In this document: piece by piece, positions 22,339 to 32,757 of the stretch
Layout of the letters: each line of letters opens with the position of its first letter
Numbering within the stretch: position 1 is the stretch's first letter
IMG/VR virus record: IMGVR_UViG_3300025012_000031
Span: 32,001 to 96,000 of that record
DNA length: 64,000 nucleotides
Strand: one strand, 5' to 3'
Origin: a virus
The notes under the pieces: model-generated
Seen by the model: the letters and a program-made list of their open reading frames with translations, nothing else
What the model was told of the DNA's origin: nothing
Databases searched by the model: none
Made by a program: the position numbers and the translations under genes

Positions 22339-23208
22339 TTAAAAGATAGCTTCTCCAACGAACCCATTGCGGAGTTGGTTGATGTCATAGACAAGGGTGT
22401 TCTCGCAAACATCAGACTTGCTGTGGTGGCGAGCATAAACCTTTGCGATATCCCCCCGTGAATTTGTCACAAGATAGTTAGCACAGCGGCATATATCATT
22501 TCCGCGACACCAATCTTTTGTCTTTACAAAATCCTGGAATCTGGTAAGGTCAAGGTCGGTGAATTTCACGCAGTTTTCTTTTGCATAATCGTTCACCGGC
22601 ATCAGTGTAACAAATCCGAAATCCATGATACCACGACTCATGAAGTGGGAGACATATTGTTGAACTCTCTCGGAGCTGTCAATGTAACCCAGGATGAGAT
22701 TGCAACTGAGATGGACCTTATTAAGATTCCCGTATTCAAAGATGTCGTCGATTTTATGCTTTGAATTGAAAACACAATTATTCAGAGAATCTTCATAATG
22801 ATGAACACTCATGGCAACACTATCAACCAAACTCACCGCATCGCCAAGAAGCTTCATGGCATCATACGATTGTGTATTGATAACTGTGTAGATATTTTTA
22901 TCATGCTGCTTGATGAATTCCAAACATCTTTTAATCGCTTCAACATGAAGCATCGGTTCGCCGCCGGTAAATGAGACTTTGTTTATTTTACATTGGGCGG
23001 CAATCATACAGAATGCATAGAAGAATTTGTAGAAATCAAAGGCCTTGGTTGCCACTCCGTGGAATGTACAGAATTCGCAATCACTAACACAGAAGTCAGT
23101 CATCCGAACGTAGATGTTAACCGCCGGCATTTCTTTCTTTTGACCCGGCTGACCATTAAGACCACAGAAGTCATTCGTTAGTTTGATCTCAACACCGCCG
23201 ATTTTCAT
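22339..23208 (-). CDS. radical SAM protein
   Basis: CVSDCEFC, SFTGGEP; extra C-terminal CRC...C. Confidence 0.9.
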   Translation of the reverse strand: MKIGGVEIKLTNDFCGLNGQPGQKKEMPAVNIYVRMTDFCVSDCEFCTFHGVATKAFDFYKFFYAFCMIAAQCKINKVSFTGGEPMLHVEAIKRCLEFIKQHDKNIYTVINTQSYDAMKLLGDAVSLVDSVAMSVHHYEDSLNNCVFNSKHKIDDIFEYGNLNKVHLSCNLILGYIDSSERVQQYVSHFMSRGIMDFGFVTLMPVNDYAKENCVKFTDLDLTRFQDFVKTKDWCRGNDICRCANYLVTNSRGDIAKVYARHHSKSDVCENTLVYDINQLRNGFVGEAIF

Positions 23209-23459
23209 TAGCACCGTCCATTCGAGGAAAGTACTTTGCTTGATCCGCTACATCCGTCGCTAAAAGTCGTGACCGATTTCTTTGCGCCGGGTGCCGAGGC
23301 ATCAGCGATCTGCTTCATTATTTCGTGGGCTGGCTTCGTGCACTCACCCTGAAGATACAACTCATTGAGCCGCGACTTGAAATCGGATACGGGCTTGCCT
23401 GCAGCAACAACCTTCTCGAGGCTTGCCATGAAAAATCGAATTTCTTCAAACAATGTCAT
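23208..23459 (-). CDS. 83-aa protein with Ser/Gly/Cys tail, coupled to radical SAM gene
   Basis: Ends TTFSDGCSGSSKVLSSNGRC; TAATG overlap. Confidence 0.7.
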   Translation of the reverse strand: MTLFEEIRFFMASLEKVVAAGKPVSDFKSRLNELYLQGECTKPAHEIMKQIADASAPGAKKSVTTFSDGCSGSSKVLSSNGRC

Positions 23460-25216: not shown

Positions 25217-25984
25217 TTATTGATTATAGTGATAAACCGTCCACCCGTTGCACCATTTGTCTTTTCTTTTATTACATGCAATCAATCTCATCGATTTATG
25301 ACTTAAATTATTATCAATACAGAATTTTCTAAATGCGCCGATAATAATAACTTCTTCGTTGTTCCTATTTTTAAAAACCCATTTTTTTGCTGATGGGTTT
25401 TTTTCACCAGTCATACTTAAAGAAACTCTTTGTTTTACATCGTCCCTTTTCAGAGGATTATTAGTTTTCATTAGGATTGATCGCCGTGTTCGTTCTTCGT
25501 CAGATATATTTGTTCTGTCTATGATTCCGGCGCAAATCAATTCCTTCATTTTGATAGATATCCGTGACTTCGATTCAGTAGTATGAAATGATTTTCCTTC
25601 TTTTGAATTGCTTATATTTTTCAGTGTTTCTTCTGTGTGTTTCTTTCCGAAGAACGGATTTCCATTTCCCATATATTTCAAAGATCGTCTTTTACGACTT
25701 TCTTCTGATATGAGTGTATTCCCACCTTCACCACCGTTTGTTAAATTATAACCGATGTTTTTATTATTTGCTTTTAACTTATCAATCCAAAAAATTTCTC
25801 TTTCGTTTAATTCTTTTTTTGATTCACATTTTTCTAAAGTTTCTTTATGAAAATTATCAGTGCCGTATTTTAATACCAATTTAGAAATAATAATACCGGA
25901 ACCGAAGTATCCTGGCCTATCAAGCGAATCTTGGCCTACATAAATTTTACCATTTCTTTTATCTGTTATTTTATAAATTATCAT
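25217..25984 (-). mobile_element. GIY-YIG (Seg-like) homing endonuclease
   Basis: IIYKIT..NGKIYVG, YFGSG, GYNLTNGGEG, NUMOD3. Confidence 0.92.
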
Positions 25985-26094
25985 GATTGTCCTCCTCTTT
26001 ATTTTTATTTATAAAGAGGAGGACAATCATACATAAAAGTTAGTTCAATAGCAAGAATGAGATTATATCAAAAAGTGATGATGATGTAAATAGA

Positions 26095-26139
26095 GAAAGC
26101 AAGGCGATAGAATTAAAATTCTATCGCCTTGCTTTCTTT
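26095..26139 (-). terminator. intrinsic terminator after riboswitch-controlled ORF
   Basis: AAAGCAAGGCGATAGAAT / ATTCTATCGCCTTGCTTT inverted repeat. Confidence 0.75.
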
Positions 26140-26157
26140 TGGATGTTGTCGTGGCGT

Positions 26158-26373
26158 TTATGCCGGGCAATATTCCTGGATCGAATCTTCCAGGGGGAAG
26201 AAGTAGAACCAACGGGAACAGCCGCCGTGAAGAGGAACTTCAACCTGAACGACGGAACCGTCTTCGTTTGCAGCAGCTTCAAAGCTCAAAGGTTCTTCGG
26301 CTTCTTTGTGCACGGTGCCAACGAAATGATTCTTGACTTTTTCGATTGCAGCTTTGACTTGTTCACGATTCAT
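26158..26373 (-). CDS. 71-aa hypothetical protein downstream of riboswitch
   Basis: AGGAGGT RBS; MNREQVKAAIEK...HGGCSRWFYFFPLEDSIQEYCPA. Confidence 0.75.
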   Translation of the reverse strand: MNREQVKAAIEKVKNHFVGTVHKEAEEPLSFEAAANEDGSVVQVEVPLHGGCSRWFYFFPLEDSIQEYCPA

Positions 26374-26425
26374 GCGAGTACTACCTCCTGTGGTTAAACG
26401 AAATTGGGCATTAAAAATCCCACCT

Positions 26426-26500
26426 TTCGGCGGCCCGGCTAACCCATTGGGTCCCGTGGCTCTGCGTCGCCGGATTGCTCCGGGTTTGCTATTATCGGTT
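26426..26500 (-). promoter_or_regulatory. GEMM-I (c-di-GMP-I fold) riboswitch, cGAMP-type signature
   Basis: CGATAATAGCAAACCCGGA-GCAA-TCCGGCGACGCAGAGCCACGG...AGCCGGGCCGCCG; A at the G20-equivalent position. Confidence 0.85.
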
Positions 26501-27533
26501 GCGAGTAACAATCAATTAATTTATGGACAGATATTAATACAAATTTAAAAGGATGTAAATAGAAAAATATCAAACTTTAGTTTTAATTCCATTAATTTTC
26601 GTTTAATATTTTAATATTATTAAAATTAAATAATCTTATTTTTATTGACATTTACGTGCAATTATATTACGCGTAGAAAGGCCTGTAATTTGGGCTATAT
26701 CAAACCATTGGGCAATATAAAAGGGTTCACCAGAATCGCCCTGGTGAACCCTAATATTCAAAAAATATTAATACTTTGGTTTGATATACTGAAGTTACTA
26801 TTTAGAAAACGTATTGATACCTCTATTCTCTATATGCCCAGCAAAGCGGCGCCACGGGCCATACGAATCTTCGCGGACATATAATCCTTAATCTTCGTCT
26901 CAATTCGCTGTTCGACGTCTTCAATGGATTTAGTTCTTTCAAAGATTTCTTGTTGGGTCGGAAGCTCCCGGATCAAGACATCAAAGACAGATTCTAACTC
27001 AACATTTGAAAGCCCTTTAAATTCGAGATTGAAATTCATAATCAGCCCTTATGATTGCCCGTATCGCAAAGACTGCTGTTTCTTTTTGCAGTGAGGGCAG
27101 ATGAAAAACTCCACATCGTCTACTTTAATCTCGACCTCAAGAGTTTCAACATCTTTCTCGTCTATGAAAACTTTACACTCGGGACATCTTAACTTTGCGT
27201 CTGTCATACAACCTCCTTGAGGTTACCCGCCTAAGGCAACCTCAAAATTGTCCGGATCAACCTTGAAGGTTAATTCGTAGGTAACAAAAGTAACATCAAC
27301 CCGGGTGCGACCGAATGCATCGCTACCCTCAACGACCATATTCTGTACAGCTTCAGGAAACCGCTCTTCGTTATTTTCAATGAACTCAACAACGGCCTCT
27401 AAACTCTTTGCATTAATTTCGATGGTGTCCATTGTCATTCTCCGTATTGGTTTATTATCATTTGATTTGATAATAAACCAAGTCAAATCAAATGTCAATA
27501 GAAAAAATGATTATTTTCTTGAGATGAAAAATA

Positions 27534-31956: not shown

Positions 31957-32757
31957 TTATTCGTCGTCATCATAACGATCTTCGGTTGGTTCTTCATACA
32001 TCTCAGAATATACATTTGCTTCTGGTATTTTCTTCTCAATGCCCTTGACTATTCCATCGGCGGTCGACTTATGATCGTCTTTATGATAACATACTTTAAT
32101 TTTTAACGGGTCTTCATTTACAACATCAACGAATATGACGCCCTTTTGCACTAGTGATTCTGCTGGGATAGCACCGGTCTTTGCGGCACCACGATCCATG
32201 CCATCCCAATCTTCAAAATGTGGATGTTTTTCGAGGTATTCATCAATCGAAAGAATGTCACCCCTCCAATAGAATCCCTCAATGCTCTTCAACAAATCTT
32301 TCAATCTAAGTGCAATTGGTAATGCCCCGACGGTAGATGATATTTTAATATGTGGATGTTTACCTAAGTACGATCGCAGTAAAGTCAAATCATGCCACGT
32401 CAAGTGTTTGCCGATGATTTCTATTGCAAGCAAGTACTTACTCAGTGGTTTAACGGCCTTTGTATAAATTCGTTCTTCTGCTTCATGATCTTTATGTTTA
32501 TATCCTGAAGTAGGAACAATTTTGTATTTATGAGAAAGTTTATCACCATCAATTACGAAACGAATATCAGAATTCTCATCTTTACCCGTTACTATCCAAA
32601 ATCTCTTATCGCGAGAAAATGAAATCTGTTGAGCATGCGTCTTTAATTCATCATCAATCAATATCCTTCCAACATTTTCAGCCGGTGTAATATGATATAG
32701 AAGTCCAACTTGTTTGCCTTCTTTAAGAAAATCTCTAAATCTAATTAAAGATGACAT
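31957..32757 (-). CDS. putative ADP-ribosyltransferase-fold protein with capsid-targeting-like N-terminus
   Basis: IRFRDFLKE; LYHIT...ISFSR...EAEERI. Confidence 0.5.
   Translation of the reverse strand: MSSLIRFRDFLKEGKQVGLLYHITPAENVGRILIDDELKTHAQQISFSRDKRFWIVTGKDENSDIRFVIDGDKLSHKYKIVPTSGYKHKDHEAEERIYTKAVKPLSKYLLAIEIIGKHLTWHDLTLLRSYLGKHPHIKISSTVGALPIALRLKDLLKSIEGFYWRGDILSIDEYLEKHPHFEDWDGMDRGAAKTGAIPAESLVQKGVIFVDVVNEDPLKIKVCYHKDDHKSTADGIVKGIEKKIPEANVYSEMYEEPTEDRYDDDE

Follow-up and report, generated by a model that had tools for sequence, protein, structure and literature searches.

A 64,000 nucleotide stretch of viral DNA (IMG/VR record IMGVR_UViG_3300025012_000031, positions 32,001 to 96,000; referred to here as the window, whose numbering is used throughout) contains a short transcription unit on the minus strand in which an RNA element of the cyclic di-GMP-I (c-di-GMP-I, or GEMM-I) riboswitch fold lies between a promoter and a 71-residue open reading frame (ORF), P0001. 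The 5′ boundary of the unit is the terminator of an upstream 69-residue gene (26722-26752). The promoter (26531-26559) consists of a -35 hexamer TTTACA (26559-26554), a 17 nt spacer and a -10 hexamer TAATAT (26536-26531), and the transcript probably starts near 26524. The aptamer (26426-26500) follows, and then a putative conditional mini-terminator (26413-26433), a Shine-Dalgarno sequence AGGAGG (26384-26389) 10 nt 5′ of the start codon, and the ORF itself (26158-26373, with the ATG at 26373). A long, strong intrinsic terminator (26094-26137) closes the unit, which is monocistronic.

The aptamer is identified by both an Rfam model and covariation. RF01051, the c-di-GMP-I/GEMM-I family, scores 54.7 bits on it, where the gathering score is 35 (E = 6.1e-8 when the 64-kb window is searched with all 4227 Rfam families); model positions 1-87 are all covered, and this is the sole match to the family in the 155-kb virus record. 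The variant family RF03167 (c-di-GMP-I-GGC) scores 50 bits, under its cut-off of 59, and the defining G47 is missing, position 47 being an A. An earlier reading of the DNA letters, made without database searches (the sequence-only reading), had called a GEMM-I aptamer at this position and listed a promoter, GCAAACC, a GNRA-capped P2, GACGC, P3, a ribosome binding site, an ORF and a terminator; the Rfam match agrees with the call, and all of the listed components are present on the minus strand. The P2 loop is a GCAA (GNRA) tetraloop, the conserved strands GCAAACC and GACGCAG are both present, and P3 is compact, with 11 bp and a triloop. The inner part of P1 is formed by CG/CG pairs that are present in all 20 aligned sequences (the phage and 19 relatives), and the outer 5′ strand of P1 is predicted by constrained folding to be CUCGC (26501-26505), pairing with GUGGG at 26423-26419.

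The covariation comes from an alignment of the phage aptamer with 19 Desulfuromonadales-type aptamers, in which 13 pairs are altered on both sides, a value as high being seen in none of 500 shuffles. The P3 pair at alignment columns 61/86 is A-U in the phage and U-A in twelve of the relatives, a compensatory change which argues that the phage copy has stayed under structural selection. Taken on sequence grounds, the phage element is a true GEMM-I riboswitch, of a known class and a known subclass. The subclass is given by the binding pocket, numbered as in the Vc2 aptamer of Vibrio cholerae. Where the consensus has AAaG followed by GCAAAcc, the phage has AAUA followed by GCAAACC, and the model alignment places an A (26490) in the G20 column, as the sequence-only reading had noted. 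The intercalating A47 is retained at 26463 and C92, the Watson-Crick partner, at 26430. The pocket triad is thus A20/A47/C92, which is that of the GEMM-Ib, or cGAMP (3′,3′-cyclic GMP-AMP), type.

When one genome of each prokaryote species was scanned by pattern for A20 aptamers that share the P3 base of the phage, 47 were returned, in Oscillospiraceae, Gemmatimonadota, Geobacteraceae, Methylomirabilota, Acidobacteriota and others, so that A20 as such is not lineage-specific. The closest of the 47 is in a Desulfuromonas genome. We also used the 98-nt phage sequence as a BLAST query, a less biased test, with a match cut-off of E ≤ 1e-9. About 80 of 233 genomes in the order of Desulfuromonas sp. 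BM302 have a match (85-88% identity over 72-76 nt, the best at 87-88%), as do 7 of 301 genomes in an even sample of the Desulfuromonas phylum; there are none in 301 genomes of the Oscillibacter phylum or in 251 genomes of Acidobacteriota. The relatives carry many aptamers per genome (26 and 24 RF01051 matches in the two genomes examined, the 26 being in G050, a 2.6-Mb metagenome-assembled genome of Desulfuromonas sp. BM302), which makes a close match more likely, although the gap to the other phyla is still large.

The phage and these relatives all have the 75-nt architecture; their P2 hairpins are identical (CCCGGAGCAAUCCGG), and P3 is short and lacks the 11-nt tetraloop receptor. Ten of the nearest 13 relatives are A20 and two are G20. 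Three examined copies lie upstream of genes for signal-peptide proteins; what comes after the others is a response regulator, a ribosomal protein or an unnamed ORF, and an ordinary long terminator lies behind most copies. Judged by this sequence kinship, the phage aptamer is a compact Desulfuromonadales-type scaffold, with relatives in Geobacter and Desulfuromonas. We note that another genome of the same order has two A20 aptamers in tandem, ~235 nt apart (L256:1266-1576).

The putative mini-terminator is a hairpin, CCGCC-GAAA-GGUGG (26433-26420), followed by GA and U5 (26417-26413), and corresponds to a possible weak terminator overlapping P1 that the sequence-only reading had pointed out. 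Its 5′ half is made up of the last base of P3, the next base, the base preceding C92, C92 and C93, with the loop beginning at G94, and its 3′ half (GGUGG) overlaps the GUGGG strand that constrained folding pairs with CUCGC in P1. Both halves of the hairpin are shared with P1 or pocket strands, and the ligand-bound aptamer and the hairpin are therefore mutually exclusive twice over. The hairpin alone has a free energy of -7.2 kcal/mol; the best fold with the terminator is at -38.5 kcal/mol and the best with the aptamer at -33.8 kcal/mol, with ligand and tertiary energy left out of these values. A gap of this kind is as expected for a switch that requires ligand to hold the aptamer, and the folding calculations favour an ON switch. 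Translational control was considered and rejected, since the folds enforced for aptamer and for terminator show no difference in predicted sequestration of the ribosome binding site. A direct repeat of 8 nt, UACUCGCA, is present at 26500-26507, in the predicted 5′ strand of P1, and again at 26373-26380, abutting the AUG, both on the minus strand. In read-through transcripts the second copy might act as a rival partner for GUGGG, but this decoy pairing is missing from the minimum-energy fold, and an 8-nt repeat is expected by chance ~0.1 times per such leader, so that the repeat is of marginal significance.

These features suggest how the switch may work. Host RNA polymerase would transcribe the leader from the sigma70/T4-early-type phage promoter. 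Without ligand, the joining strand between P3 and P1, CCGCC with C92 and C93, would pair locally with GGUGG, and the 5-bp GAAA-capped hairpin with its U5 tract would end transcription ahead of the gene. With ligand, C92 would instead pair with a guanine of the ligand and C93 and G94 with the 5′ CG, while GUGGG would join the upstream CUCGC and complete P1; with both halves of the hairpin occupied the polymerase would read through, and the AGGAGG-led ORF would be translated. Synthesis of the 71-residue protein would then be confined to host cells in which the cyclic-dinucleotide level is high. The likeliest ligand would be cGAMP made by a Hypr-GGDEF-type cyclase of a Geobacter-like host, reporting a surface-associated or Fe(III)-oxide-associated state.

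P0001 ends in ...PLHGGCSRWFYFFPLEDSIQEYCPA and has no signal peptide. The ORF looks real, with a strong ribosome binding site, synonymous variation and a confident single-sequence structural model. Its GC content is 0.48 (0.47 at third codon positions), which is similar to that of other phage genes and gives no compositional sign of recent transfer. Across the metagenome copies there are two synonymous single nucleotide polymorphisms (SNPs; in L004 and L008) and one T20A form. In one contig (JGI 3300024999; L255:3001-3264) a 42-bp deletion removes the last five codons, including Cys69, along with half of the terminator, resulting in an 87-residue product. A further variant affects the terminator closing the unit, where two contigs, L009 and L010, have TTAAAA in place of TTTTAA (alignment A1 columns 609-610), such that the loop is flipped and the stem is unchanged.

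The sequence-only reading had described the protein as one of unknown type, and larger searches agree. P0001 belongs to no Pfam, PHROG or NCBIfam family, a word-indexed search returned only itself, and a full HMMER search of 1.84 billion representative proteins found no true homologue. Giant cadherin/Big_9 repeat proteins (adhesins) were rejected as homologues, their scores being sums of weak repeat matches with per-repeat BLASTP E values of ~5e-4. No paralogue was found in the phage, and the ESM Atlas gave no useful neighbour. The AlphaFold single-sequence model is fairly confident (predicted local distance difference test score 79.7, predicted TM-score 0.62) and has a helix (residues 3-20) packed on four antiparallel beta strands. 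Foldseek against PDB and BFVD gave no match at E ≤ 0.001, and VIA-align finds a common helix-on-sheet arrangement only, with a Z score of 8.7 to a designed cystatin fold and 5-7 to others; no solved cyclic-dinucleotide sponge or anti-CBASS (cyclic-oligonucleotide-based antiphage signalling system) protein is among the VIA-align matches listed, which settles such a role neither way. The modelled arrangement appears to be a common cystatin/NTF2/PepSY-like one, and P0001 is best described, on this model, as a small cytoplasmic early alpha+beta protein. Its size, early expression and predicted shape would possibly fit a take-over factor that binds a host protein.

The virus record is 155 kb long with a CheckV completeness of 65%, and encodes 29 tRNAs, GIY-YIG and HNH homing endonucleases, an NAD-dependent ligase, and a topoisomerase II large subunit with 36% identity to those of KVP40-type T4-like vibriophages. 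Neither a GGDEF nor an EAL domain is encoded in the record. Megablast of the locus against GenBank phages gave no match, no GenBank phage being close at the DNA level, and blastn with the aptamer gave one partial match, to a 5-kb faecal contig. The carrier is a distant T4-like jumbo phage of the lytic type. P0001 is present on 19 metagenome contigs, and all nine places listed for them are groundwater (PRJNA268031, ANAN16 assemblies and JGI 3300025030), which we take to be the Rifle aquifer. Among ten aligned copies the 130-nt leader is without SNPs, and the ORF and the terminator loop vary.

The promoter is one of a recurrent set. The window has five copies of TTTACA-N17-TAnnAT, each on the coding strand, compared with an expectation of 0.22, and the extended -35 sequence CTATTTACATC occurs exactly three times; this 11-mer is on both flanks of the riboswitch cassette, at 26552-26562 and 26083-26093. 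The enrichment and recurrence argue that the riboswitch is served by a regular sigma70/T4-early-type phage promoter. The next such promoter (26090-26062 on the minus strand; TTTACA-17-TATAAT with a TG) starts 4 nt past the strong terminator, and the terminator and early promoter together (26062-26137) resemble a PeSL (promoter early stem-loop) composite. PeSL elements in T4-type phages are terminator/early-promoter cassettes that shuffle small genes (PMC2839356, PMC4122927). The neighbourhood of the riboswitch is populated by small ORFs, homing endonucleases and tRNAs. At 25983-26030, on the minus strand, a perfect hairpin of 20 bp, ATGATTGTCCTCCTC...GAGGAGGACAATCAT, contains both the start codon and the Shine-Dalgarno sequence of a GIY-YIG gene (25217-25984) and looks like translational masking of this homing endonuclease, a mechanism known in some T4 homing endonucleases. 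Elsewhere on the same strand, an 83-residue ORF (23208-23459) with a Gly/Ser/Cys-rich tail, ...SDGCSGSSKVLSSNGRC, overlaps the start of a generic radical S-adenosylmethionine (SAM) gene (22339-23214) that has weak matches to peptide maturases, and the two (22339-23459) could be a small peptide and radical SAM maturase pair.

We put at about even the chances that the element as a whole is a GEMM-Ib-type ON switch, built on a Desulfuromonadales scaffold and carried by a T4-like jumbo phage, that senses, most likely, cGAMP; in this we infer the identity of the ligand, the ON polarity, the host and the role of the protein. Geobacter GEMM-Ib switches are terminator-based ON switches (PMC6456294). 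By analogy with them we infer antitermination in the phage, in what would be a miniaturised form. Several observations weigh against this interpretation. Constrained folding gives a non-canonical P1 that is broken by a 3x4 internal loop and includes two G-U pairs, and the 20-sequence alignment shows that the canonical 5-bp outer P1 register of all of the relatives is unavailable in the phage. The terminator is short, with a stem of 5 bp and a GA spacer ahead of the U5 tract, and a larger hairpin, CGAAAGGUGGG...CCCAAUUUCG (-8.6 kcal/mol), competes in the minimum-energy fold. The 19 metagenome copies are near-identical, and hence there is no covariation from the phage element itself, and of 49 IMG/VR records in which the neighbouring RlmN-like gene is also found, none has an RF01051 match. 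The host is assigned from aptamer kinship and sampling site only, so that the Geobacter-like host should be viewed as a candidate.

Two further points bear on the ligand. A20 aptamers also bind c-di-GMP, by an adenine that is protonated, and there are bispecific examples in nature (PMC6140456), so A20 is no proof of cGAMP selectivity. Second, there are two near-identical bacterial scaffolds with G20; the presence of both G20 and A20 in such similar scaffolds suggests that both signals are used in that order. In the Geobacter scaffold A20 confers cGAMP selectivity, and an A20G substitution in Gmet_0970 flips it to c-di-GMP (PMC6456294). The sequence-only reading had taken A20 to indicate cGAMP. 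The argument from A20 by itself is insufficient (PMC6140456), but the proposal gains from a scaffold that belongs to the Desulfuromonadales, the lineage with cGAMP-selective A20 aptamers (PMC6456294). Given this kinship, we rate the chances that cGAMP is the main ligand as somewhat better than even.

The strongest competing explanation keeps the architecture and the ON logic and changes the ligand to c-di-GMP, or to both dinucleotides, in which case the phage would read a general sessile or biofilm signal. We regard this as a real but clearly less probable alternative, at a little under one chance in three. The protonated-adenine mode of binding speaks for it, as does the natural bispecific A20 example Cbe 1-2 (PMC6140456), and A20 GEMM-I aptamers are found in many phyla without known cGAMP signalling. 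The non-canonical P1 could also shift selectivity, P1 context being known to affect measured affinities (PMC6140456). However, the nearest relatives are Desulfuromonadales scaffolds, in which the choice between A20 and G20 decides selectivity (PMC6456294), and the existence of G20 versions of the scaffold argues that A20 is a maintained choice rather than drift.

That the aptamer is a captured relic without regulation, its weak hairpin failing to terminate and the ORF being expressed constitutively from the early promoter, is unlikely. The shortness of the terminator, a P1 register unlike that of any relative, and the absence of the element from the 49 records with the neighbouring gene are all in keeping with a relic. 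On the other hand, the pocket and tertiary-core residues are all intact and the score is well over the cut-off, the compensatory change in P3 points to ongoing structural selection, and the 130-nt leader has no SNPs over the ten aligned copies in which the ORF and terminator loop do vary.

Two proposals have the switch respond to host immune signalling. In the broader one, which we consider as improbable as the relic, a virulent T4-like jumbo phage would eavesdrop on cGAMP, both as a surface respiration signal and as a CBASS signal, through a riboswitch of its host's lineage, and so induce an orphan counter-defence or take-over protein only as that signal rises; if true, it would be without precedent both as a cGAMP sensor encoded by a virus and as an RNA by which a phage senses an immune alarm. 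The narrower one, marginally less probable still, is that the switch responds to a burst of cGAMP from a host CBASS and induces the 71-residue protein as a counter-defence factor, for instance a sponge or an inhibitor of an effector. In its favour, CBASS uses cGAMP as a signal, the pocket is of the cGAMP type, and P0001 is a small orphan phage protein, like many anti-defence proteins. CBASS is mostly triggered by later phage products, and the early-type promoter is mildly against the sensing of a mid or late infection alarm; moreover, the related bacterial switches form a housekeeping Hypr-GGDEF regulon and lie ahead of secreted proteins. The link to immune signalling made by the sequence-only reading finds no support here other than which molecule is involved.

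The proposal that P0001 is a ribosomal peptide precursor, with a Gly-Gly leader and a 20-residue aromatic two-Cys core matured by downstream radical SAM enzymes, can largely be set aside: HGG is followed by CSRWFYFFPLEDSIQEYCPA as such a layout would have it, and there are two radical SAM genes at most 4 kb downstream, but in the confidently modelled sheet the would-be core makes up strands 3 and 4. The radical SAM gene nearest to the ORF lies beyond a strong terminator, a promoter and a homing endonuclease gene, has an RlmN/Cfr-type RNA methyltransferase core and is not a peptide maturase, and neither a peptidase nor a transporter gene was found adjoining the ORF. The GG and two-Cys aromatic tail to which the sequence-only reading drew attention are therefore present in the protein, but the hint of a processed peptide is not sustained.

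Should the ligand be confirmed, the ON switch favoured here would mean that phages make early genes depend on a second messenger of the host that signals surface-attached respiration. For a jumbo phage that is uncultured, the riboswitch would then offer a clue to the host from sequence, its 14-nt terminator platform would be available for engineering, and P0001 would become a candidate state-dependent host take-over factor. The Geobacter and Desulfuromonas relatives are keystone metal reducers of the sampled aquifer.

Phage riboswitches were rare in a 2017 survey, which gives two c-di-GMP-I examples, both in Clostridioides difficile prophages (PMC5473149). Two IMG/VR scans with a hidden Markov model filter turned up real GEMM-I aptamers on 12 further viral contigs, A20 in two cases, one ahead of a secreted protein and the other of a CheY-like receiver; most of the 12 carry the tetraloop-receptor motif that is absent from the phage aptamer. 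Two prophage-like IMG/VR contigs have an aptamer directly upstream of a CheY-like receiver gene (L058:5848-5929, G20, 77 bits; and L183:4707-4788, A20). A third, 35-kb viral contig has an A20 GEMM-I aptamer of the tetraloop-receptor type upstream of a signal-peptide protein gene (L166:8004-8091). The C. difficile prophage riboswitches (Sudarsan 2008, as cited in PMC5473149) are likewise virus-borne GEMM-I elements reading a host second messenger, but they are G20 (c-di-GMP type) and reside in temperate prophages, whereas the element described here is A20, Desulfuromonadales-like, and placed in a T4-like phage ahead of a cytoplasmic orphan. The Vc2 c-di-GMP-I aptamer (PDB 3MXH, 3MUM and 4YB1; cited in PMC6140456) has the same fold and supplies the pocket numbering; it has G20 and a GAAA loop with an 11-nt receptor in P3, where the phage has A20, a GCAA loop and no receptor motif. 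Its G20A mutant binds both cGAMP and c-di-GMP (cited in PMC6140456).

The closest known systems are the Geobacter GEMM-Ib switches (such as Gmet_0970 and GSU1761/pgcA; Kellenberger 2015 and Nelson 2015, as cited in PMC6456294 and PMC6140456), which have the same GEMM-I fold and A20/A47/C92 pocket. They share the compact scaffold, and the phage design appears to be terminator-based like theirs, with ligand expected to turn the gene on. The phage version differs in its T4-like carrier, its early-type promoter, and an interrupted P1 in another register. Its putative terminator is a 14-nt hairpin formed from the aptamer's own 3′ strand and not a separate long stem, and its target is a predicted cytoplasmic orphan and not a secreted cytochrome, pilus or surface protein. 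The arrangement also recalls PeSL cassettes, in which small ORFs lie within terminator/early-promoter elements in a variable region; none is described with a riboswitch between promoter and ORF (PMC2839356, PMC4122927), and by analogy the unit may plausibly have been acquired through PeSL-type shuffling. The riboswitch class and subclass are known, and this is not a new kind of system; what stands out is the unusual carrier, the unusually compact platform and the orphan target.

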